Under the pieces are notes generated by a model. That model worked only from the letters and a program-made list of their open reading frames with translations, did not search any database and was not told the DNA's origin. From a phage, in sequence record PZ452594.1: 64,000 nt of DNA, one strand, 5' to 3'. Position 1 is the first letter of the stretch, and every line of letters starts with the position of its first letter. Positions 2,654-33,450 of the stretch are shown in pieces. Made by a program: the position numbers and the translations under genes.

Positions 2654-4278
<1,625 letters not shown>

Positions 4279-4279
<1 letters not shown>

Positions 4280-4518
4280 TGGAAGGTTTAATTGAAGCTA
4301 TTAAATCAAACGACCTCGTAGCCGCTCGTAAATTATTTGCTGAAGCCATGGCTGCAAGAACGACTGATTTAATCAAAGAAGAAAAAATCACTATCGCTCG
4401 TAATTTCTTAATCGAGGGTGAAGAACCTGATGACGAGGATGAAGATGACGACGACGATAATGATGATAAAGACGACAAAAAAGACAAAGACTCTGACGAA
4501 GACGAGGATGATGAATAA
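4279..4518 (+). CDS. 67: Prohead core protein gp67, poly-acidic C-terminus
   Basis: 79-aa ORF between portal and gene 68; C-terminal run of D/E ([19 protein letters not shown]...); start overlaps gene 20 stop. Confidence 0.85.
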
Positions 4519-5611: not shown

Positions 5612-6421
5612 ATGCTTAAAGAACAACTGATTGCCGAAGCGCAGAAAATTGATGCTTCCGTTGCTCTTGATAGTATTTTCGAATCAGTTAATATTTCTCC
5701 GGAAGCAAAAGAAACTTTCGGCACTGTATTCGAAGCTACCGTCAAGCAGCACGCCGTTAAATTAGCTGAATCTCATATCGCTAAAATTGCTGAAAAAGCA
5801 GAAGAAGAAGTAGAAAAAAATAAAGAAGAAGCAGAAGAAAAAGCTGAGAAGAAAATCGCTGAGCAAGCTTCTAAATTCCTTGACCATCTTGCAAAAGAAT
5901 GGCTCACTGAAAATAAATTAGCAGTAGATAAAGGTATCAAAGCCGAACTGTTTGAATCCATGCTTGGTGGATTGAAAGAGCTCTTCGTTGAACACAACGT
6001 TGTTGTTCCAGAAGAATCAGTTGATGTTGTAGCTGAAATGGAAGAAGAGCTGCAAGAACATAAAGAAGAATCAGCTCGTCTGTTCGAAGAACTCAATAAG
6101 CGTGACGCATATATCAATTATGTGCAGCGTGAAGTGGCATTGAGCGAAAGTACTAAAGATCTGACTGAGTCTCAAAAAGAAAAAGTCTCTGCTCTGGTCG
6201 AAGGTATTGATTATTCAGATGCATTCTCAAGCAAATTGAGTGCCATCGTAGAAATGGTGAAGAAATCTAATAAAGATGAAAGCACTATTACTGAGAGTAT
6301 AAATACTCCTGATACTGAAGCAGCCGGACTGAATTTCGTCACTGAAGCTGTAGAAGATAAATCTGCACAAGGTGCAGAAGATATTGTAAGTGTATATGCG
6401 AAAGTCGCATCTCGTTTCTAA
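5612..6421 (+). CDS. 22: Prohead scaffolding core protein gp22 (269 aa)
   Basis: 269-aa highly acidic, coiled-coil-rich ORF directly upstream of the major capsid gene. Confidence 0.95.
   Translation: MLKEQLIAEAQKIDASVALDSIFESVNISPEAKETFGTVFEATVKQHAVKLAESHIAKIAEKAEEEVEKNKEEAEEKAEKKIAEQASKFLDHLAKEWLTENKLAVDKGIKAELFESMLGGLKELFVEHNVVVPEESVDVVAEMEEELQEHKEESARLFEELNKRDAYINYVQREVALSESTKDLTESQKEKVSALVEGIDYSDAFSSKLSAIVEMVKKSNKDESTITESINTPDTEAAGLNFVTEAVEDKSAQGAEDIVSVYAKVASRF
6298..6305 (+). promoter_or_regulatory. Late promoter motif for gene 23, inside 3-prime end of gene 22
   Basis: Exact TATAAATA 135 nt upstream of gene 23 ATG. Confidence 0.6.
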
Positions 6422-6439
6422 TTTTAAAGGTTAACACAA

Positions 6440-8005
6440 ATGACTATCAAAACTAAAGCTGAACTTTTGAACAAATGGAAGCCATTACTGGAAGGTGAAG
6501 GTTTACCGGAAATTGCTAATAGCAAACAAGCGATTATCGCTAAAATCTTTGAAAACCAGGAAAAAGATTTCCAGACAGCTCCGGAATATAAAGACGAAAA
6601 AATTGCTCAGGCATTCGGTTCTTTCTTAACAGAAGCTGAAATCGGCGGTGACCATGGTTACAATGCTACTAACATCGCTGCAGGTCAGACTTCTGGCGCA
6701 GTAACCCAGATTGGCCCAGCTGTTATGGGTATGGTACGTCGTGCTATTCCTAACCTGATTGCTTTCGATATTTGTGGTGTTCAGCCGATGAACAGCCCGA
6801 CTGGTCAGGTATTCGCACTGCGCGCAGTATACGGTAAAGACCCAATCGCTTCCGGTGCTAAAGAAGCATTCCACCCAATGTATGGTCCAGATGCAATGTT
6901 CTCTGGTCAGGGTGCTGCTAAGAAATTCCCAGCTCTGGCTGTTAGCACACAAACCACAGCAGGTGATATCTATACTCACTTCTTCCAGGAAACTGGTACT
7001 GTATATCTGCAAGCTTCTGTTCAAGTAACAATCGATGCTGGTGCGACTGATGCTGCTAAATTAGATGCTGAAATTAAGAAACAAATGGAAGCTGGTGCAC
7101 TGGTAGAAATCGCTGAAGGTATGGCTACTTCTATCGCTGAACTTCAGGAAGGTTTCAATGGTTCTACCGATAACCCATGGAATGAAATGGGCTTCCGTAT
7201 CGATAAGCAAGTTATCGAAGCTAAATCTCGTCAGCTGAAAGCTGCTTACTCTATTGAATTAGCACAAGACCTCCGCGCTGTTCACGGTATGGATGCTGAT
7301 GCTGAACTGTCTGGTATTCTGGCTACAGAAATTATGCTGGAAATCAACCGTGAAGTTGTTGATTGGATTAACTACTCAGCTCAGGTTGGTAAATCTGGTA
7401 TGACCCTGACTCCGGGTTCTAAAGCTGGTGTATTTGACTTCCAGGACCCAATCGATATTCGTGGTGCTCGCTGGGCGGGTGAATCCTTTAAAGCTCTGTT
7501 GTTCCAGATTGACAAAGAAGCAGTTGAAATTGCTCGTCAGACTGGTCGTGGTGAAGGTAACTTCATTATCGCTTCCCGTAACGTAGTTAACGTTCTGGCT
7601 TCAGTTGATACTGGCATTTCTTATGCTGCACAGGGTCTGGCTACCGGCTTTAACACTGATACTACCAAGTCAGTATTTGCTGGTGTTCTGGGTGGTAAAT
7701 ACCGCGTATATATCGACCAGTATGCTAAACAGGATTATTTCACTGTAGGTTATAAAGGTCCGAACGAAATGGATGCTGGTATTTACTATGCTCCATATGT
7801 AGCTCTGACTCCGCTGCGTGGTTCCGATCCGAAGAACTTCCAACCGGTAATGGGATTCAAAACTCGTTACGGTATCGGTATCAACCCATTTGCAGAATCC
7901 GCTGCTCAGGCTCCGGCTTCTCGCATCCAGAGCGGTATGCCTTCTATTCTGAATAGCCTTGGTAAAAACGCTTACTTCCGCCGTGTATATGTTAAAGGTA
8001 TCTAA
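6440..8005 (+). CDS. 23: Major capsid protein gp23 (521 aa)
   Basis: 521-aa ORF, N-terminus MTIKTKAELLNKWKPLLEGEG typical of T4 gp23; followed by strong terminator hairpin. Confidence 0.98.
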   Translation: MTIKTKAELLNKWKPLLEGEGLPEIANSKQAIIAKIFENQEKDFQTAPEYKDEKIAQAFGSFLTEAEIGGDHGYNATNIAAGQTSGAVTQIGPAVMGMVRRAIPNLIAFDICGVQPMNSPTGQVFALRAVYGKDPIASGAKEAFHPMYGPDAMFSGQGAAKKFPALAVSTQTTAGDIYTHFFQETGTVYLQASVQVTIDAGATDAAKLDAEIKKQMEAGALVEIAEGMATSIAELQEGFNGSTDNPWNEMGFRIDKQVIEAKSRQLKAAYSIELAQDLRAVHGMDADAELSGILATEIMLEINREVVDWINYSAQVGKSGMTLTPGSKAGVFDFQDPIDIRGARWAGESFKALLFQIDKEAVEIARQTGRGEGNFIIASRNVVNVLASVDTGISYAAQGLATGFNTDTTKSVFAGVLGGKYRVYIDQYAKQDYFTVGYKGPNEMDAGIYYAPYVALTPLRGSDPKNFQPVMGFKTRYGIGINPFAESAAQAPASRIQSGMPSILNSLGKNAYFRRVYVKGI

Positions 8006-23243: not shown

Positions 23244-23273
23244 ACTATAACACAACATAAGGAACTTGTAAAC
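23244..23273 (-). promoter_or_regulatory. T4-type early promoter for the alt.-3-like ORF
   Basis: Minus strand GTTTAC (23273-23268), 18-nt spacer, TATAGT (23249-23244); leader with GAGGAA RBS. Confidence 0.6.
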
Positions 23274-25330
23274 TACATTTTGAACTTTTTAGACATTCCG
23301 TTGATGTTAACCAAAGAAGCCAAGATTTGAGAAACTTCGTTTTCCTCTTCTTTTGATTCTTCTACAAGGAATTGATTAAATCCAGCCATTGGACGAACTT
23401 CACCGGTTTCCATTAAATGGTCTCCATCATATACTGATTCTTCTAATTGTTCAGAAGGAGGAACGATTGTACCTTCGATTAGATACTTGTTATAAGCAGT
23501 TTCTTTCATAAAGTACGTACTTACTTTATTAATCTTCAGTAAAATTCCACGCGGTAGAATAACTTCAGCTTCTGATGGAAATCCTGATAAATGACCTGGA
23601 ACGATAACTTTGATTCGCTCAGCTCCTTTAATTACCATACCCACGCTAGTTTCAGCATCTTCATTAGCATATGTAGAATGACTACCCATATGCATCAAAT
23701 CTTCTGCGTCAACTGAACCTTCTCCTTCACCAGAAAATACTGCGCCGGAATCATCTAGAGCCATATAGTTTTTACCATGCTCACCGAAGATATTTGGTTT
23801 AAGAGATGTGGATACGAAGTTCTTGAAATAGAACATTTTGTTTTCAATGTTATGACGCAAAGTTTTAAAGGTAACTTCTTGTCCGCGATAAAGCGTAGTT
23901 CCTGGAGGAAGAACTGAACCTTTAGCGAATGCAGAATCCAACGTCTCGATGTGCTTAATAGCTCGTTCCATATATTCTTCACGGGTAGAATCTGGTTTAC
24001 CCAAAAGGAACGAGTTCATTTCAACATATGAATCTGCACAATAATCTTCAATTACATCAGATTCAGCTTGGGTTAATCCTTTTGGAGTTACTTCAGTGCT
24101 TGCGTATTCATATGCCTGGGCAGCAGATTCATTAATCAATTTATAAATGCCATTCATTACAAATTGAATAATAGCTGTCTTTTCATCTGGCGTAGCTTTA
24201 GAACCTTTAACTAAATCATTGATAATTTTCTTAATAACATCAAAGCTATTAGAAATATTAATGTCAGCAAGATCGCTTAAAATTTTATCAGTTTTATAAT
24301 CAAAGAATTCTTTATTCTTTAAATATTCTTGAGAACCTTGATATGTTATATCGCTCTGCAACTTGATGGATGGATCACGTAAACGCGCATGGGCTAATGC
24401 AATATGATTTCGGAAGTTTTCTAGTTCATAATCGCTAGATTTAAAACGAGAAGCACTCCTCATACCACCGATAGCTCCTTTGCTGAAGTTTGAACCAATC
24501 TGAATAACGCCAGAGTTCATCGGACCTTCTGCTTTATATACCGGAACTTTAGATTCAAACTCTTGATATTTCTTAGCAGCGAAGCTATCACCCTGAAGTG
24601 AAGCATCAACAGTAGAATATTGAGCTTGTGCTGCTAATCGACGACTAATTTTAGTTTTCTGAATAACAGCTTGGTCCGTGCGCTTATCATTTTCTAAAGC
24701 AATAGAAGCAGCAACAGCGACAGCTTTAGGAACAGCATTACCTGTTTTAACGTCTACATAAACATCACCAACCTTTGATTCAACTTTTGTGAATAACTCA
24801 GTTGAAATAGGAGGTACACCTGGAATGTCTTCTAAATTGGCATTTTTACGGTAAACCATAATATATGCATACTTTTTATCATAGTCCCAGATTTCCTTTA
24901 AAAGAACATATCGACCTGCTCCTTTAGTACGTACTAAACGGTCAGCAATAACTTGCATTTGACGAGCAGCGCCATTTGTTTTACTTTTTAGTACGCGGAA
25001 TAAGCATGCGTCAATTTTATACTGCTTCATTGTTTGAAGAGCAGTATCAAAAACAGCGTTAATGACGCCAATTGGATTTCCACCCAAGTTTTTAAGCTTA
25101 ACCAGCGATAATTTCTCGTTGACACCTATCATTACGATATGCATCATTTTATCGCCTGGCTTAACGTTTTTATTCGTATCACCACCAGAGGTGTATGTAC
25201 AAAATCTAAATCCAGGAAGCACGCTTTCTTCGCCGGCTTGAATAGCAAAAATTTGTGGTATTTTATGCTTAGGATTTAAGTTAACAACCGGCGCCGAAGC
25301 GCCGTCAAATAATTCTGTAATAAGTTCCAT
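23273..25330 (-). CDS. Alt-like mono-ADP-ribosyltransferase paralog (685 aa)
   Basis: N-terminal ~230 aa closely similar to Alt (MELITELFD..., FCTYTSGGDTN, YKIDAC, WDYDKKYAYI); C-terminal half has R (TLYRGQ), STS (FVSTSL) and ExE (SEAEVILPRG) ART motifs. Confidence 0.85.
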   Translation of the reverse strand: MELITELFDGASAPVVNLNPKHKIPQIFAIQAGEESVLPGFRFCTYTSGGDTNKNVKPGDKMMHIVMIGVNEKLSLVKLKNLGGNPIGVINAVFDTALQTMKQYKIDACLFRVLKSKTNGAARQMQVIADRLVRTKGAGRYVLLKEIWDYDKKYAYIMVYRKNANLEDIPGVPPISTELFTKVESKVGDVYVDVKTGNAVPKAVAVAASIALENDKRTDQAVIQKTKISRRLAAQAQYSTVDASLQGDSFAAKKYQEFESKVPVYKAEGPMNSGVIQIGSNFSKGAIGGMRSASRFKSSDYELENFRNHIALAHARLRDPSIKLQSDITYQGSQEYLKNKEFFDYKTDKILSDLADINISNSFDVIKKIINDLVKGSKATPDEKTAIIQFVMNGIYKLINESAAQAYEYASTEVTPKGLTQAESDVIEDYCADSYVEMNSFLLGKPDSTREEYMERAIKHIETLDSAFAKGSVLPPGTTLYRGQEVTFKTLRHNIENKMFYFKNFVSTSLKPNIFGEHGKNYMALDDSGAVFSGEGEGSVDAEDLMHMGSHSTYANEDAETSVGMVIKGAERIKVIVPGHLSGFPSEAEVILPRGILLKINKVSTYFMKETAYNKYLIEGTIVPPSEQLEESVYDGDHLMETGEVRPMAGFNQFLVEESKEEENEVSQILASLVNINGMSKKFKM

Positions 25331-25333
25331 GAT

Positions 25334-27430
25334 TTATCCTTGAACGAACTTGTAAGGCATGTTTGTAATATCTATGCAAGACGCAATAATTCCAAGAGAT
25401 GATTCGACTTTCTGTTTAACATTTGATGAAACAAATGATGCAAAATCAACTCTGTCTTCTATTTCAATATCACCTGTCATTGCAACTACTTCGCCGGTTT
25501 CCATTAGACGGTCACCGTCATAAATTACTGATTCGGTGAGTTCTTCCGTAGTCATAACTTCAGCTTGAATGAGTTTTGTATTATTAGATGTTGTTCCGTC
25601 ATTATTAGAAGCATCAGTTATTTTATTAACTTTGACCATCAATCCACGCGGTAGAATAACTTCAGCTTCAGTTGCTATTCCGAGATTTCCTGGATATACA
25701 ACATTAACTTTATGTGCGCCGTCAATAGCCCATCCTATTTGAACTTTAACGTATTCAGGATTTTCTTTATACGCTCTTATTTCGTTTGGATTAATAGTTA
25801 TTCCTTCTTCATTTTTATCAACTGTTAATTCGTTACGAGCTTCTGGTTCTAAAAGACCAATACCAGCATGTGTAATTCCAAAACGCCCAAAAATGATAGG
25901 AGTTAAAGAAGTAGATACAAAATTTCTGAAATAGAACACTTTATTTTTAACTAACGCTTCATATATAGGAGCAGTCATACTTTGAGCACGATAAACTGTA
26001 ATGCCTTCTGGTATACGGTCACCATTTTCAAAAGCTGAATCTAAGTTATTTATAGCAGATTCAATTTCTTTTTCACTCATTACATCATATCGTTCTGGAT
26101 TGTAACGACCTAAAAGAAGATTATTAATGTCTGTATATCCTGAACCACAATACTCTCTAATGCCGCGCTTTTGTGATGGAGTATATTTAGAACCATCACG
26201 GGCAATAGTAATATCAATCATTGGACCTGCACCAATTCCAGAAAAACTATAAATCATTCTTTTGAGGAATTTAGTTTTTGCTGCGTTCCAGGAATTTTTA
26301 GTCATTTCTTCCCAGACTTCATCTGGTTGCCCTTTACGAGTTTTATTATGTTTATCAAGCCAATTATCTTTATATTCTTCAAAGAATTTATTAACAGCTG
26401 CTGCGTATTTCTCTAAACATTTTATTGAAGTAGTTGGTTCATTTTTGATTGCGTTAAAAATTACATCTTTAATTTTTTCTGAAACTTCACCGACTTGACT
26501 CATTGGAAAGAATTTATAATCATAGTGAAGTTCATCTGCCGTTCCTTCAGCAATAATTTTTGCTGCCTTTGTTTTAGAAGCTAATGAATTAATTCCAATT
26601 TTCATTTCTTCTGCTTCGGGAATTAAAGGTGCAGTAGCTGGTTTATTAAAATTAGCTGCTGTAGATTCATACTTCTGGAATAATTCACTTTCAAATCTAG
26701 AAGATTCCAATGACTGACTTTGTGCAATTGCTCTACGGGAAATTTTAACTTTAACGATTACAGCTTGGTCAGAACGTTTATCATTTTCTTGTGCAATTGA
26801 TGCTGCAATTGCCTCATTTTTAGTTACTTGGGCTCCAGTATCTTTATTGATATAAACATCACCGACTTTCGATTCAACTTTAGTAAAGAGCTCGGTACTA
26901 ATTTCCGGAACTCCTGGAATGTCTTCTAGTGATACATTTTTGCGATGTATAAGAATATATGCATACTTTTTATCGTAATCCCAGAGTTCCTTAAGAAGGA
27001 CGTATCTACCACCTGAACGACTACGGATAAGTCTATCAGCAATAACTTGAATTTGTCGAGCTTGGCCAGCAGTTTTAGACTTAAGAATACGAAGCATGCA
27101 GGCATCAATTTTATATTGACGCATTGTTTGCATTGCAACAGTAAAAACTGAATTGATATAATTAATCGGGCTTGGACCCAGACCTTTTAATTTAGCAATT
27201 GAACCTTTAGCAGTTAATGTAAAAGGAACAATATGCATCATTTTATCTCCCATCTTTAAATCGCGATTAGTATCACCTCCAGATGTATAGGTACATAAAC
27301 GAAAGCCTGGTTGTTCAATTGCATCATCAACATGAACTGAAAAAATTTGTGGTATTTTCTTCTTTGGATTTAAGTTTGTAATCGGAAGAGTAGTATCTTC
27401 GTCAAATAATTCTGTAATGAGTTCCATCAT
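25334..27430 (-). CDS. alt: Alt, packaged mono-ADP-ribosyltransferase (698 aa from first ATG)
   Basis: N-terminus (M)MELITELFDEDTTLPITNL; ART motifs YRAQ, FVSTSL, TEAEVILPRG; late promoter motif upstream on minus strand. Confidence 0.9.
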   Translation of the reverse strand: MMELITELFDEDTTLPITNLNPKKKIPQIFSVHVDDAIEQPGFRLCTYTSGGDTNRDLKMGDKMMHIVPFTLTAKGSIAKLKGLGPSPINYINSVFTVAMQTMRQYKIDACMLRILKSKTAGQARQIQVIADRLIRSRSGGRYVLLKELWDYDKKYAYILIHRKNVSLEDIPGVPEISTELFTKVESKVGDVYINKDTGAQVTKNEAIAASIAQENDKRSDQAVIVKVKISRRAIAQSQSLESSRFESELFQKYESTAANFNKPATAPLIPEAEEMKIGINSLASKTKAAKIIAEGTADELHYDYKFFPMSQVGEVSEKIKDVIFNAIKNEPTTSIKCLEKYAAAVNKFFEEYKDNWLDKHNKTRKGQPDEVWEEMTKNSWNAAKTKFLKRMIYSFSGIGAGPMIDITIARDGSKYTPSQKRGIREYCGSGYTDINNLLLGRYNPERYDVMSEKEIESAINNLDSAFENGDRIPEGITVYRAQSMTAPIYEALVKNKVFYFRNFVSTSLTPIIFGRFGITHAGIGLLEPEARNELTVDKNEEGITINPNEIRAYKENPEYVKVQIGWAIDGAHKVNVVYPGNLGIATEAEVILPRGLMVKVNKITDASNNDGTTSNNTKLIQAEVMTTEELTESVIYDGDRLMETGEVVAMTGDIEIEDRVDFASFVSSNVKQKVESSLGIIASCIDITNMPYKFVQG

Positions 27431-27668: not shown

Positions 27669-29128
27669 AAACCAGTTACCTCATGAAAATCGCCAAATAC
27701 ATCTTCGAACGTATTAGCTTTAGTTTTATCTTCACGTAAACGAATCGCAATTGGAAGAAATAATTTAACGTAATCGGTGCGGCCATCAGATTTTAACCAA
27801 CCGTTGCATTCGCACTCTAGAATTTTTCCAATATAATAATTTTGGTTTTCCATAATGCGAGTACGGTCAAGTTCATGTGATTTTACACCAGCTTTATCTT
27901 TTAAGCCTGAACCAGCATTTACTTTAATTTTTCCACACTCTGACTCAAGAATAAATCCACCCGCTTTAGTAGGGTCTTTACGGTGAGGATAAATTCCTAC
28001 AATTTTTAAATCAACATCAATTACTTCTTTAAATTTATAGAGATTTTTTGAACGGGCATTTTCCCATAATCCATCGATATTTTTGAGAATAATACCTTCA
28101 AGACCTTGGTCAATATACTTTTTGTAAATTACCTTAGCTTCATCTAGGTTATTTACTACCTGGTTTTCAATTAAAATTACTTTATCATATCCTGATGTCA
28201 TTTGTTCTAATTTAGAAAAACGTACATCGTACTTTAAACGAAATGCTGGAAGACCGTATATTTCTACCAACGGTACATAATCCCAGACCTGAAACTTCAT
28301 GCATTGAGCTTCTTTTTCTGAAATAGTTCCCTTTAAAGATTTATTAGCGATTCCATTAGAAGCAGTACGTGATTCAGCTACTTCGGCGAATTCTTTAGCT
28401 TTACTAATTTCAGGATAAGCATCAAAAAGAAAATCTAGGCCTTCTGGCTCCTTTTTAACTTGCTCATGGTATACCAATTCGCCATCAATTAACACACCTT
28501 CTGGATGAATCTGGCGGGCTTCAGCGGTCATTTTAATTAACTCTTCCTTAAGAAGATCTAATCCTAGATATTCATTACCAGCTCGTGATAAAAGACGAAC
28601 ATCATCTAATTCATCACCTCTGACTTCAGCAAAGCACCGAGCTCCATCAGCTTTTAACTGGGCAAAAGCTGGAAATTTGATATTCTTATTAATGCCTTTT
28701 TCATCATAAGAACTTGCAAGCATTTGAGGTTGTTCAGGAATTAAACCTGGCCAAACTTTATTTGCAATAGATACTGATGCACCGCATTCAAGGTCTCGCA
28801 TCATCACCCGACGCAAAACTTCAACATCATCTTTTTTACCATCGGTGATATATCCAATTAATTCCTCAATTGCCGCATTTCCAGTCAATTTCCGAGTAGC
28901 TAACGTGAATTCAATGAAGTCGAGCATATCGGTAAGAGTCAACATTCCAAAACTCTGGGTAGCAATACCCGGTTTAGGCCATTTCTTGATATAATACTGT
29001 AACCCACGAGAATAAGTCAGACGATATACTCGTTTAAGCAATTCATTATCTTTATTCTTTTCAAGAATTGCTTGCTTCTGCTTAGTTGAACCAATAGATG
29101 CTATTTCGTTCAGAATTTTAAGAATCAT
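27665..29128 (-). CDS. 30: ATP-dependent DNA ligase gp30 (487 aa)
   Basis: 487 aa; adenylation motif KADGARC; N-terminus MILKILNEIASIGSTKQKQ as T4 ligase. Confidence 0.97.
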   Translation of the reverse strand: MILKILNEIASIGSTKQKQAILEKNKDNELLKRVYRLTYSRGLQYYIKKWPKPGIATQSFGMLTLTDMLDFIEFTLATRKLTGNAAIEELIGYITDGKKDDVEVLRRVMMRDLECGASVSIANKVWPGLIPEQPQMLASSYDEKGINKNIKFPAFAQLKADGARCFAEVRGDELDDVRLLSRAGNEYLGLDLLKEELIKMTAEARQIHPEGVLIDGELVYHEQVKKEPEGLDFLFDAYPEISKAKEFAEVAESRTASNGIANKSLKGTISEKEAQCMKFQVWDYVPLVEIYGLPAFRLKYDVRFSKLEQMTSGYDKVILIENQVVNNLDEAKVIYKKYIDQGLEGIILKNIDGLWENARSKNLYKFKEVIDVDLKIVGIYPHRKDPTKAGGFILESECGKIKVNAGSGLKDKAGVKSHELDRTRIMENQNYYIGKILECECNGWLKSDGRTDYVKLFLPIAIRLREDKTKANTFEDVFGDFHEVTGL

Positions 29129-29394
29129 TGTTCATCCTTTAGAGTTTGGTTTACAGCTCTATTATAAATCAATTCATCATTAAGCTCAGTCAAAGACCTG
29201 TGGTACGTGGTTCTAACTTTATTTCCTTGCATCCAGTGCTTGACGTAAATGAAACCTTGCTCTACACATTTTTTAAAAATTCGTTCGTCTTTTTGAGCTC
29301 GGAATTCTGGATTGCATCTAAAAAATTGATTTACGTGACCGTAATCACGTGTAGTATTACCTTCATTTTCATAAATAGTGTGAACAACAAACAT
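29125..29394 (-). CDS. Hypothetical protein (89 aa; 30.x cluster)
   Basis: ORF with overlapping start/stop with neighbours. Confidence 0.6.
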   Translation of the reverse strand: MFVVHTIYENEGNTTRDYGHVNQFFRCNPEFRAQKDERIFKKCVEQGFIYVKHWMQGNKVRTTYHRSLTELNDELIYNRAVNQTLKDEQ

Positions 29395-30242
29395 TAGAAT
29401 GCTCCTTGGAAAATATTATCACCACTAGTAATTCTATTAAAATACCCTGTGTCACCAGGCTTAATATAACTCCATGTATGGAATGGATGTATCTGGTGTG
29501 AGTGTGTATAATATGGATGATATGGATTATAAGGATTAAATCCAGGAGTTCTCCAGGTAGTGTTCCAACGAAAAGAATCGTTTTTAATCATCTTCTCGAT
29601 TACATCTTTTATAGCTTTTTCACTATCAAAACTTTCTTTATTTTCCTTCGATGGAAAAAGCTTATTCTCGACATCATTCCATGTATAAACTCGCTGTGCA
29701 GTTTTTGGAATACTGTCACGCTCCCCTCGAGCCATCCAATAAACAGGAACATTTAATATTTCACTCGCGTGATCGCAGTGGTGAGCGAGATCGTCAATAT
29801 AACAAATTACGTTATATTTCTCTTTTGCCTTTTTGAACAACTCTTCTTTTGAAGAATCATGACTACACATCAGTACTTCTGAGAAGGCACCAGGAAAAAG
29901 AGCATTCAAATTAAATTGACGATTCAACAGAGCGTCAATAGAATCACCCAGTGCTGTAACAGCAACAAAATTATAATCTTCTTTTAATTTGTTAATTACA
30001 CACAGAGCATCTTTATATGGAGACAAGTAACGAATAAAATCCGAACGATTGTATTTTTCAATTAGCTTAACGCCAAGTTCTTCATCACAGTTAAAGAGTT
30101 TACCTGGAGAAATAAATTTTTCGTCCTGAATCATTTTTAAAATATGTTCTAATGGAAGATTATATTTTTGGGCAAAATAAGGAAGACCTGATTGCCAGCT
30201 TAAACATACACCATCAATATCAGTCAAAATAGTAGGCTTCAT
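29394..30242 (-). CDS. HAD-superfamily hydrolase, putative 5-prime(3-prime)-deoxyribonucleotidase (282 aa; 30.2-like)
   Basis: N-terminal HAD motif I DIDGV (MKPTILTDIDGVCLSW); downstream aspartate-rich motif CYIDDLAHH. Confidence 0.65.
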   Translation of the reverse strand: MKPTILTDIDGVCLSWQSGLPYFAQKYNLPLEHILKMIQDEKFISPGKLFNCDEELGVKLIEKYNRSDFIRYLSPYKDALCVINKLKEDYNFVAVTALGDSIDALLNRQFNLNALFPGAFSEVLMCSHDSSKEELFKKAKEKYNVICYIDDLAHHCDHASEILNVPVYWMARGERDSIPKTAQRVYTWNDVENKLFPSKENKESFDSEKAIKDVIEKMIKNDSFRWNTTWRTPGFNPYNPYHPYYTHSHQIHPFHTWSYIKPGDTGYFNRITSGDNIFQGAF

Positions 30243-30703
30243 AGAGAGTCTCTTAATAGGTTTAACACATCAATAAATTCAGCTTCGGTTAGTATTGTAT
30301 CATCTTTTGTTAGACCACTAGCCATGCTGTGCTTCAAAACTTTTCCTTTCGAGGCTTGTAATGCATCACGAAAGCCCTTGTTTTGGATCGCTGCTTCAAA
30401 ATATGCATTTGTGTATAATTCTTTCCACGCCGGGGAGTATCTTGAAAACGGAACTCCAAGCCAGAAGAGGGTCCCACGGTCCTGAGCTCTAGCATAAGAC
30501 CTTCCAGCTTGTTGGGCGGCAAGCCCGGATAACCCAAATATACGACGTTGTTGTTCAACATTTTTCACCTTGCATCCTTGGAGGAATCCTTCAAGACCTC
30601 CAAATTGAATACCATCCATAACGAAAGGCCATTGGGCGAAATTACTTAATGCACATGATGGCCACCTAAAATTGCTTCTAATCTCTAACTCAGACATTTT
30701 CAA
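30239..30703 (-). CDS. NADAR/YbiA-like (DUF1768) domain protein (154 aa; 30.3-like)
   Basis: Motif LSNFAQWPFVMDGIQFGGLEGFLQGCK parallels YbiA FSNFAAWPIKVDGKTWPTSEHYFQAQK (recalled from memory). Confidence 0.6.
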   Translation of the reverse strand: MKMSELEIRSNFRWPSCALSNFAQWPFVMDGIQFGGLEGFLQGCKVKNVEQQRRIFGLSGLAAQQAGRSYARAQDRGTLFWLGVPFSRYSPAWKELYTNAYFEAAIQNKGFRDALQASKGKVLKHSMASGLTKDDTILTEAEFIDVLNLLRDSL

Positions 30704-30896
30704 TGCTTATAATTTCAACATCAGCCCAATGACCATAGCAAGGAAGACGAAATTCAACTGGCCAGTTAGGGTCCTTTTCTAATATAATAGACTCAACTCG
30801 TGGTTCTTCATGTTCATCAGTATATGGATTTTTATCTGTTACTTTATATGTGACCTTAATGTACTGAATTCCAAAAATCTTATTAATTATATTCAT
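30690..30896 (-). CDS. Hypothetical protein (68 aa)
   Basis: Small ORF in 30.x cluster, overlapping neighbours. Confidence 0.5.
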   Translation of the reverse strand: MNIINKIFGIQYIKVTYKVTDKNPYTDEHEEPRVESIILEKDPNWPVEFRLPCYGHWADVEIISIENV

Positions 30897-31090
30897 ACTA
30901 ATTCCTTTAATCCGTAAATAGGAGATAATTCATCACCCATGCGAAGGTCTTCATTTCCATCTACCCAGGAAACAATATAAGCCTCTTTTATTTGAATACC
31001 ACTCCATTTAAATGGAGGTAGAACCTTAGAAATTAATCCAGGTATACCAACTCCCTTTAATTCAACAGTTTGACCTAAAAAGAATTTCAT
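30893..31090 (-). CDS. Hypothetical protein (65 aa)
   Basis: Small ORF in 30.x cluster. Confidence 0.5.
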   Translation of the reverse strand: MKFFLGQTVELKGVGIPGLISKVLPPFKWSGIQIKEAYIVSWVDGNEDLRMGDELSPIYGLKELV

Positions 31091-31377
31091 TAGAACCTCA
31101 TCTGAAAACCGTGCGATTTAACATTACCGCCACCAATATCAGAGATATTAATTTCGCGCGCAATTGAAGGGTCAATGTCAATTTCACGATTGAGTTTAGT
31201 GATAGCTAAAGTATCGCGCCTATTTACAGTACGAAACTCTAAAGGACAAACCACATCAACGTAGTTTTTAATCGATTCGCTAGTAGGTTGCAAATGTGCA
31301 GGAAGGTCTTTAGGCGCCTTTGAAAAAACTACTTCGCAGAAGTTTTTACGGGTATCAAAATAAGTAGTCATAAACAT
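31090..31377 (-). CDS. Hypothetical protein (95 aa from ATG 31377; track gives 107 aa from ATG 31413)
   Basis: Upstream ATG at 31413 is immediately followed by a GC hairpin; ATG at 31377 has GAGGAA RBS. Confidence 0.55.
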   Translation of the reverse strand: MFMTTYFDTRKNFCEVVFSKAPKDLPAHLQPTSESIKNYVDVVCPLEFRTVNRRDTLAITKLNREIDIDPSIAREINISDIGGGNVKSHGFQMRF

Positions 31378-31394
31378 AATATTTTCCTCAGTAA

Positions 31395-31408
31395 GGGGCC
31401 GAAGCCCC
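31395..31408 (-). terminator. UUCG-tetraloop hairpin between two 30.x ORFs
   Basis: ggggc cgaa gcccc (UUCG on minus strand). Confidence 0.45.
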
Positions 31409-31418
31409 CTCATTTATT

Positions 31419-31796
31419 TTAAATATCAAATTCATTAAGAACTACATCAAAGATTGCTTCAAGATGCTCAGGTTTAGCTCTGTTACTCAGAATATGACGA
31501 ATCCAAGTTTTAACCAAAAGCTTGCGATTAGCACCATTCCAGCAAGGATGAGTCCCTAAATCACGTTGACGAAAATCATCATCCAGAGCGATTTTGAAGT
31601 TTGAACCTTCCATTGTGATTGAAACCGTGATTCCATTTTCAAATCGCATATAAACGTAATTAGGAGTCATATACTGCTCAATTTCGCATACTGATCCATT
31701 TTGATGTTTCCAGAGGCAAATAGTATCAATAGAACCTGCAATACCATTAGAAACATATTTACGTTCAAAGTTAATGTAGTTCATTTTATTCTCCAA
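31419..31796 (-). CDS. Hypothetical protein (125 aa)
   Basis: ORF in 30.x cluster. Confidence 0.6.
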   Translation of the reverse strand: MENKMNYINFERKYVSNGIAGSIDTICLWKHQNGSVCEIEQYMTPNYVYMRFENGITVSITMEGSNFKIALDDDFRQRDLGTHPCWNGANRKLLVKTWIRHILSNRAKPEHLEAIFDVVLNEFDI

Positions 31797-31851
31797 GATG
31801 TTTAATTGCGGTACAGGTATATAATATCATATCCTGTACCAAAGTAAACAA

Positions 31852-32184
31852 TTATTTTACTACTTTCCAATGCTGCATGTCAAGTTTACCAACTTTTTTC
31901 ATCTTTTCAATCAAACGTTCGGCACGTTGACGGGCTGTAACATAATACCATTCACCTAATTCATTTTGTTCAATTTTTCCAACGATTACTGTATTCAATT
32001 CATAAATCCAACCAGTAAAGAAATTATGAACTTGAATTGTAAAGGTGAAATCTGTTCCCATACCTTCTGTTGTTTCTACTTCAATAATATCACCTTCAAC
32101 TGCCATTAAAAACCACATAGTTTCATCATATTTACCATTGAAACATTTAGTTTTAACTGTAGCGTTCAGATTAATCGTTTTCAT
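31852..32184 (-). CDS. Hypothetical protein (110 aa)
   Basis: ORF with AAGGAG RBS and upstream GTTTAC element. Confidence 0.6.
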   Translation of the reverse strand: MKTINLNATVKTKCFNGKYDETMWFLMAVEGDIIEVETTEGMGTDFTFTIQVHNFFTGWIYELNTVIVGKIEQNELGEWYYVTARQRAERLIEKMKKVGKLDMQHWKVVK

Positions 32185-32272
32185 TTTATTCTCCTTTGTT
32201 TGTATAAGATAATACTATCACAAAGGAGCTATACTGTAAACAACTTTTTATGCAATCTTTGGAAAATAAAAA

Positions 32273-32292
32273 AGGACTCCCGAAGGAGTCCT
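32273..32292 (-). terminator. Rho-independent terminator after the small basic ORF
   Basis: aggactcc cgaa ggagtcct; on the minus strand followed by UUUUUAUUUUCC. Confidence 0.65.
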
Positions 32293-32296
32293 CAAC

Positions 32297-32473
32297 TTAT
32301 GCTTTCTGCTTACCAAAACGAGAAGCATCATCTCGAAGAACCGCACGTGCTCGGCGCATAATCTTCTCAACAGTTTGATTGATACGAGAGTTCGACCCAC
32401 GCTTGTAGCCAGCGCGTTTAGAATCACCAACTTTCTTTTCAACTGCTTTCTTTGCTTTAACTTGTTTTGCCAT
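32297..32473 (-). CDS. Small highly basic protein (58 aa from ATG 32473; track 72 aa)
   Basis: MAKQVKAKKAVEKKVGDSKRAGYKRG...; Lys/Arg-rich; followed by a rho-independent terminator. Confidence 0.5.
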   Translation of the reverse strand: MAKQVKAKKAVEKKVGDSKRAGYKRGSNSRINQTVEKIMRRARAVLRDDASRFGKQKA

Positions 32474-32718
32474 TATAAATTCTCTTTTAAATGAAAATGC
32501 AGGACTTATTGGCATTGCCTGCGCAAGCCCTCAAGGGGAACATAGGTTTTTGGATATTTAACGACCAGGATAACCATAAACCCGTCATCATTCACATTCA
32601 AGAGGTACACCGTAAAACTGCCGGGGTCTTAAAACTATAATGATTCGCAAATCATTAATCAGACAGTTCGACGGCTCCTCGATTTTAGCTCACACTAAGG
32701 CAGTGAATCTCCAATAAA

Positions 32719-32967
32719 TTACTTCAGTGTTACCACAAAGTGACGAACTGCTTTTCGTGCAGCAGAAGCCAGAGGCTTAGCATATTTAAGTTCATCTTTT
32801 TCCTGAAGCTCAGCAGCTAATGCAGTTTGAGCAGGATTCAGATGTTTGAAATAACGCAGGATTTCAAGAGCTTCGGCTTCAACATCAATAGATGCGCCAT
32901 AGTTTTCGTGACCATTATTCCATGCGTTTCGTTGCAGTTCAAGAGCGTGTTGTAATTGTTTAATCAT
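32719..32967 (-). CDS. rIII: rIII lysis-inhibition accessory protein (82 aa)
   Basis: 82 aa, N-terminus MIKQLQHALELQRNAWNNGHENYG as T4 RIII. Confidence 0.9.
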   Translation of the reverse strand: MIKQLQHALELQRNAWNNGHENYGASIDVEAEALEILRYFKHLNPAQTALAAELQEKDELKYAKPLASAARKAVRHFVVTLK

Positions 32968-33106
32968 TTAAAAATTCTCGTTAGAGATTAAAACTCGGTA
33001 GTCACGTTCTTCTGAATTTCATCTTCTTTCGACAGATCTCTCAGTTGTAGACTACCACATAGAATTGTTCGGTTAACTTATTATTCCGACACCCAATTCA
33101 TATTAT

Positions 33107-33114
33107 TATTTATA
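33107..33114 (-). promoter_or_regulatory. Possible late promoter motif (minus strand) upstream of rIII
   Basis: Minus-strand TATAAATA adjacent to gene 31 stop, ~140 nt upstream of rIII ATG. Confidence 0.35.
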
Positions 33115-33450
33115 TCACTTATAAAGACACGGAATAGCTTTATAGTGACAAGTAACGAATTTTTGTTTAATTTCTTTTGGCTGCTTAAGACCCAGAGCTA
33201 CAAAAGGATGCGGAACATTTCGAATTTGACCAACTGGAAGAGAAGTCAAATCACCAACTTCGCAGAAACCCTCAGGAACATCAGGACCAACAGAGTGAAC
33301 TACACACAATTCAGGAACTTCACCTTGAACACGTTTACCGATAATAAGTCCTGATTCTGTAACTTCTTCATCACCGGCTTGTGCAGGTTCAGAAACTAAA
33401 ATAACATATTCACCGACAGCACGAATTGGTAGCTGTTGTACTTCAGACAT
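33115..33450 (-). CDS. 31: gp31 co-chaperonin (GroES functional homolog, 111 aa)
   Basis: 111 aa, N-terminus [30 protein letters not shown]; MotA-box promoter upstream. Confidence 0.95.

Follow-up and report, generated by a model that had tools for sequence, protein, structure and literature searches.

DarT1-catalysed ADP-ribosylation of guanine is reversed by NADARs (Schuller et al., Mol Cell 2023), and gp30.3 of phage T4 was named AdfN (anti-DarT factor NADAR) by Johannesman et al. (Nat Commun 2025;16:1598). AdfN is a guanine-ADP-ribose DNA glycohydrolase that is both necessary and sufficient against DarTG1 (Nat Commun 2025;16:1598; Toxins 2024;16:208). For example, T4 and T2 without adfN form no plaques on DarTG1 cells, purified AdfN takes ADP-ribose off DNA, and the substitutions E36A and K43A abolish function of the T4 protein (Nat Commun 2025;16:1598). 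In vitro, T4 gp30.3 hydrolyses guanosine-ADPr and leaves thymidine-ADPr intact (Toxins 2024;16:208). In an independent T4 transposon screen (HIDEN-SEQ, Data S6), gene 30.3 had a log2FC of -7.25 under DarTG1 and +0.03 under DarTG2, and published transposon data show that 30.3 insertions in T4 carry no fitness cost on plain K-12. RB69 is rescued by ectopic AdfN; its own allele is 15 residues short through a frameshift, a truncation that correlates with DarTG1 sensitivity, and loss of the C-terminal helix inactivates the allele (Nat Commun 2025;16:1598). AdfN(T4) fails to neutralise DarT1 in uninfected cells and rescues non-T-even phages only partly, and unmodified T4-GT7 remains AdfN-dependent; Johannesman et al. 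ruled out DNA modification as the cause and suggested that AdfN may depend on a further T-even protein (Nat Commun 2025;16:1598). The NADAR classification by de Souza and Aravind, as later papers cite it, places phage proteins in the superfamily, with a His replacing the last-strand Glu of YbiA or the Asp of DarT-associated members.

The gene described here is a near-identical copy of this characterised T4 anti-defence enzyme, and the finding is therefore already known: T4 AdfN is covered by bioinformatic, biochemical and genetic work published from 2012 to 2025.

A T4-like adfN locus

The window, that is, the whole 64,000-nucleotide stretch of phage DNA analysed (PZ452594.1), contains a minus-strand ORF at 30239..30703, confirmed as 154 aa when counted from TTG. 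The ORF and its immediate neighbours are as follows.

30239..30697, minus strand: adfN (T4 gene 30.3) coding sequence, 152 aa from the ATG at 30697
Start at 30703, minus strand: TTG of the longest ORF variant of adfN, two codons upstream of the ATG at 30697
30334..30561, minus strand: 30.3' homologue, a 75-aa ORF in another frame within adfN (from the ORF list; DUF2883 in Pfam, E=9e-54)
30690..30896, minus strand: gene 30.4 homologue, 68 aa (from the ORF list; phrog_2042)
29394..30242, minus strand: gene 30.2 homologue, a HAD phosphatase-fold protein of 282 aa that starts MKPTILTDIDGV

The adfN start is likely the ATG at 30697 (152 aa) rather than the TTG at 30703, because the ATG agrees with the T4 RefSeq annotation and with the published residue numbering (E36, K43). 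Methods 4.2 of the Toxins 2024 study (PMC11125620) lists the T4 gp30.3 construct as residues 1-208, compared with 152 aa in RefSeq and the window. Counted from the ATG, window gp30.3 is identical to T4 gp30.3 at 151/152 positions (99%); the sole change, I125M, lies two residues past H123, and Met at this position is common among close relatives. A Pfam scan of the protein returned Phage_30_3 (PF08010) at E=2.3e-70 and 235 bits, against a cut-off of 36. This match, together with the 151/152 identity, shows the ORF to be a real gene and not a random one. The internal 30.3' homologue corresponds to an ORF that is annotated in T4 as an internal translation product.

Gene order in the window is as in T4 (30.4, 30.3, 30.2, 30.1, 30 (DNA ligase), alt.1, alt), and the 2-kb stretch around adfN matches 676 phage records, with 97.6% the best identity among the matches listed. 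The window is thus part of a T4-like Tequatrovirus genome. Compared with T4, the flanking genes are more diverged than adfN (gp30.2 is 93% identical, and the two Alt paralogues 70% and 41%), and the source phage is therefore a mosaic relative of T4 and not T4 itself. The adfN stop overlaps the 30.2 ATG (ATGA) and the 30.4 stop overlaps the adfN start (ATGTCTGA), so 30.4, adfN and 30.2 are tightly packed and probably translationally coupled, as the overlaps suggest.

A promoter scan of 29000-33200 found 15 sites versus 14.6 expected from shuffled sequence, that is, no excess. With 11/12, the sigma-70-like match at 31883-31854 on the minus strand, upstream of the 30.7 homologue, is the best one there. 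One further feature precedes the 30.8-30.2 block; counted from the rIII homologue (32719-32967), it is about 425 bases further downstream.

32272-32293, minus strand: strong terminator-like hairpin with a 9-bp stem, GAGGACTCCTTCGGGAGTCCTT followed by a T-run

Family membership and active site of gp30.3

The direct Pfam scan of window gp30.3 gave no PF08719 (NADAR) match at E up to 1, no NCBIfam model matched the protein, and a PDB search with the single sequence was empty. Profiles built from the family gave a different picture. The top PDB match of a 9-sequence profile was YbiA of E. coli (2b3w; E=0.058), and with 64 sequences YbiA was again at the top (E=0.0031); the family profile aligns the LSNFAQWPFVMDGIQFGGLEGFLQGCK motif to YbiA residues 26-82 (FSNFAAWPIKVDGKTWPTSEHYFQAQK). 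When 1.84 billion representatives were searched exhaustively with HMMER, a large family of 1454 members emerged (E up to 0.001, at 50% identity). PF08719 was matched individually by 10/64 single-domain and 9/57 longer multi-domain relatives, with E as low as 1.2e-6; the gathering score of this model is 35.1 bits, and the one relative for which a score is shown falls below it at 21.2 bits. The missed PF08719 threshold reflects the reach of the model and not absent homology. A fold search with gp30.3 recovered NADAR structures alone. We conclude that gp30.3 belongs to the NADAR superfamily, through family profiles, intermediate sequences and structure rather than through a direct Pfam scan. The first-pass annotation had proposed a NADAR/YbiA-like protein from the LSNFAQWPFVMDGIQFGGLEGFLQGCK motif, which the ORF does carry and which the family profile places on YbiA. 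Of the checks that it set beforehand, a PF08719 profile search came out negative when run directly, which taken literally would have counted as a refutation, and the fold search agreed with the proposal.

The catalytic and C-terminal elements of gp30.3 map to the window as follows, with the signature and the H123 codon read directly from the sequence.

30569..30649, minus strand: N-terminal NADAR signature, residues 17-43, LSNFAQWPFVMDGIQFGGLEGFLQGCK
30590-30592, minus strand: E36 codon, within the N-terminal NADAR signature
30569-30571, minus strand: K43 codon, within the N-terminal NADAR signature
30329..30331, minus strand: H123 codon (CAC)
30242..30286, minus strand: C-terminal helix, about residues 138-152 (helix 138-151 in the model)

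The alignment of 64 relatives shows no variation at N19 or E36, and at least 90% of the sequences share K43 and H123. E36 and K43 fall in the segment aligned to SEHYFQAQK of YbiA, and H123 comes right after a strand predicted at 120-122 in the structure model. The C-terminus is identical to that of T4 and the helix is full-length. E36, K43, H123 and the C-terminal helix are all intact in the window allele.

Relatives of gp30.3 are found in several domain architectures. A C-terminal NT5C-type HAD domain occurs on 30.3-type NADARs in three 50%-identity clusters (P0032, P0040 and P0148), of which P0032 has 49 members from many independent contigs. On the pig-gut contig L082, a NADAR-NT5C fusion gene of the P0032 cluster (5985-6977) is found 1.5 kb downstream from the gene (2693-4456) for an ADP-ribosylglycohydrolase of 587 aa (PF03747); the contig also carries a weak DUF1810 match and a low-molecular-weight phosphatase, forming a small ADP-ribose-related gene cluster. 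Tandem duplicated NADAR domains (about 290 aa) were seen in P0023, P0025, P0026, P0037 and P0110, and P0024 (480 aa) has a full NADAR copy plus a split second copy. Other fusions in the family (P0095, P0124 and P0052) involve BspA-type leucine-rich repeats, ASCH domains and GDSL lipase.

Function of the window gene and competing explanations

The window gene is almost certainly adfN, a single-domain NADAR hydrolase that cleaves guanine-ADP-ribose of phage DNA to defeat DarTG1. In the proposed scheme, the phage would infect a cell with the DarTG1 toxin-antitoxin defence, DarT1 would ADP-ribosylate guanines of the phage DNA and replication would be blocked. AdfN would then cut the N-glycosidic bond of guanine-ADP-ribose, returning the DNA to its unmodified state and releasing ADP-ribose, so that, in effect, the phage would bring its own DarG1 antitoxin as an orphan copy. 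The predicted catalytic residues are Glu36 and Lys43, both in the N-terminal motif, and H123, the phage-clade His that would replace the last-strand acidic residue. The part of this reading that comes from the window is the identity with T4 AdfN, the NADAR fold and the intact catalytic and C-terminal residues. What the literature has demonstrated, on the T4 protein (99% identical), is the enzyme activity and the role in counter-defence. We infer that the I125M allele of the window acts like T4 AdfN, both in DarTG1 resistance and in removal of ADP-ribose from DNA; different behaviour is not expected because E36, K43, H123 and the full C-terminal helix are kept. Counting against the reading are that window gp30.3 has no direct PF08719 score and no NCBIfam model, that its I125M change is close to H123, that AdfN(T4) does not relieve DarT1 toxicity in uninfected cells and is partial in non-T-even phages, and that the Toxins construct is given as residues 1-208. 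The idea that an ADP-ribose-processing enzyme counters an ADP-ribosylation-based defence, raised in the first-pass annotation, matches the experiments on T4 AdfN against DarTG1.

One additional, unlikely possibility is that a probably coupled flanking gene (gp30.4 upstream and/or the HAD protein gp30.2 downstream) contributes to the T-even context dependence of AdfN or to handling of the released ADP-ribose. Besides 30.3, T4 HIDEN-SEQ showed significant depletion under DarTG1 for gene 30.4 alone (log2FC -1.79, adjusted p 0.014), and NT5C-type HAD fusions occur in three independent clusters, one of them with a member near an ADP-ribosylglycohydrolase gene, both of which speak for such a contribution. 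However, because 30.4 runs into the adfN start, its depletion is most simply read as a polar effect on adfN, and T4 30.2 insertions were neutral under DarTG1 (log2FC -0.12, p 0.61), showing that 30.2 is dispensable for DarTG1 counter-defence in T4. The distribution of these genes points the same way. In 80 diverse IMG/VR loci with a 30.3-type NADAR, a gp30.2 HMM found a HAD protein within 3 kb in just 11/80, and searches for gp30.4, 30.5, 30.1 and 30.3' had no matches. All-against-all clustering of the flanking ORFs from these loci gave partner families of at most 12 loci each; two larger clusters (24 and 19 loci) consist of antisense ORFs within the NADAR gene. The HAD protein as a conserved operon partner of 30.3-type NADARs is rejected on these figures (11/80 loci, no recurring partner family).

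The neighbour itself is a genuine HAD-fold protein. gp30.2 has HAD motifs I-IV (DxD, S/T, K, DD) on a Rossmannoid fold, with a core of residues 1-200, followed by a tail.

29394-29570, minus strand: disordered C-terminal tail of gp30.2, His/Pro/Tyr/Asn-rich (NPYNPYHPYYTHSHQIHPFHTW...), about 60-80 residues, a low-confidence region of the model

The tail varies widely in length and sequence across homologues and differs from that of T4 by an indel. Scans of gp30.2 against Pfam (including NT5C, PF06941) and NCBIfam gave no significant match. The best PDB match of the gp30.2 profile was 2jao (E=0.016), and dNT-like structures tie with many non-nucleotidase HADs. A full-text literature search for 'gp30.2' returned nothing. 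The earlier description of this neighbour as a HAD-type nucleotidase therefore holds for the HAD part, by motifs and fold, and the term 'nucleotidase' is weakly supported. Orthology of gp30.2 to the NADAR-fused NT5C domains is also unsupported (the gp30.2 HMM scored 9 bits on P0032 and nothing on P0040 and P0148).

A YbiA-type housekeeping role, in which gp30.3 would act as an N-glycosidase on riboflavin-pathway intermediates or other small NAD-derived metabolites and not on DNA, is very improbable. The last-strand Glu that defines the YbiA family is His in gp30.3, the T4 protein hydrolyses guanosine-ADPr on DNA in vitro, and the only known gp30.3 phenotype is DarTG1-dependent, with insertions cost-free on plain K-12.

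It is similarly hard to credit that AdfN acts on protein ADP-ribosylation by the phage's own adjoining Alt-type transferases, undoing or adjusting it. This idea starts from two alt paralogues on the same strand, 3-7 kb downstream of adfN.

25334..27430, minus strand: full-length alt-type ADP-ribosyltransferase gene, tandem paralogue
23273..25330, minus strand: full-length alt-type ADP-ribosyltransferase gene, tandem paralogue

Against it, the NADARs assayed to date have guanine-ADPr in nucleic acid as their substrate, and Alt modifies protein arginines. In T4 HIDEN-SEQ, alt insertions had no DarTG1 phenotype (log2FC -0.01) and 30.3 was neutral without DarTG1, and across the 80 loci no partner family exceeded 12 loci. 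The proximity is not functionally meaningful, because NADARs act on DNA guanine-ADP-ribose and alt insertions lack a DarTG1 phenotype; it is best seen as a coincidence of gene order in the T4 core. Thus the nearness to ADP-ribosyltransferase genes that had been remarked on earlier is real as a matter of position and carries no functional meaning. gp30.2 or Alt as a non-redundant requirement for counter-defence is likewise rejected, as both are neutral in the published T4 transposon data.

Non-enzymatic blocking of DarT1 by toxin binding, as by AdfA and, reportedly, by another phage NADAR (the latter mentioned in a discussion passage of Nat Commun 2025;16:1598), has a negligible probability here and is already refuted for T4 by the loss of counter-defence in the catalytic-site mutants E36A and K43A; in addition, purified AdfN removes ADPr from DNA and does not neutralise DarT1 in uninfected cells.

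With the window gene read as adfN, a sequence-only annotation had correctly recognised an enzymatic anti-defence gene, which provides a calibration point and no new biology. The practical value lies in annotation, since most of the 676 matching phage records, and RefSeq T4, say 'hypothetical protein'. A better name for gp30.3 could be AdfN, NADAR DNA ADP-ribosylglycohydrolase, and for gp30.2 HAD-family phosphatase.

Comparison with DarG1, YbiA and T4

Window gp30.3 differs from DarG1, the DarT1-associated NADAR antitoxin (for example, G. lovleyi 8bat and E. coli C7), in being an orphan: it has no adjacent DarT1 gene, and the neighbours of adfN are 30.4 and 30.2. It also lacks the N-terminal extension of DarG1 and has His, not Asp, in the last strand, and AdfN is unable to replace DarG1 in uninfected cells. 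Compared with E. coli YbiA and PF08719 (DUF1768), identity is about 20% and the biological role differs; the last-strand glutamate that marks the YbiA subfamily is replaced by His123. The neighbour gp30.2 differs from 5'(3')-deoxyribonucleotidase/NT5C HAD phosphatases by an additional disordered extension of about 80 aa at its C-terminus. In the 70%-identical alt paralogue, the first approximately 240 residues differ from T4 Alt at one position and the remainder is diverged. T4 has one alt plus alt.-1/alt.-2 as remnants of duplication, whereas the window has two tandem full-length alt genes.
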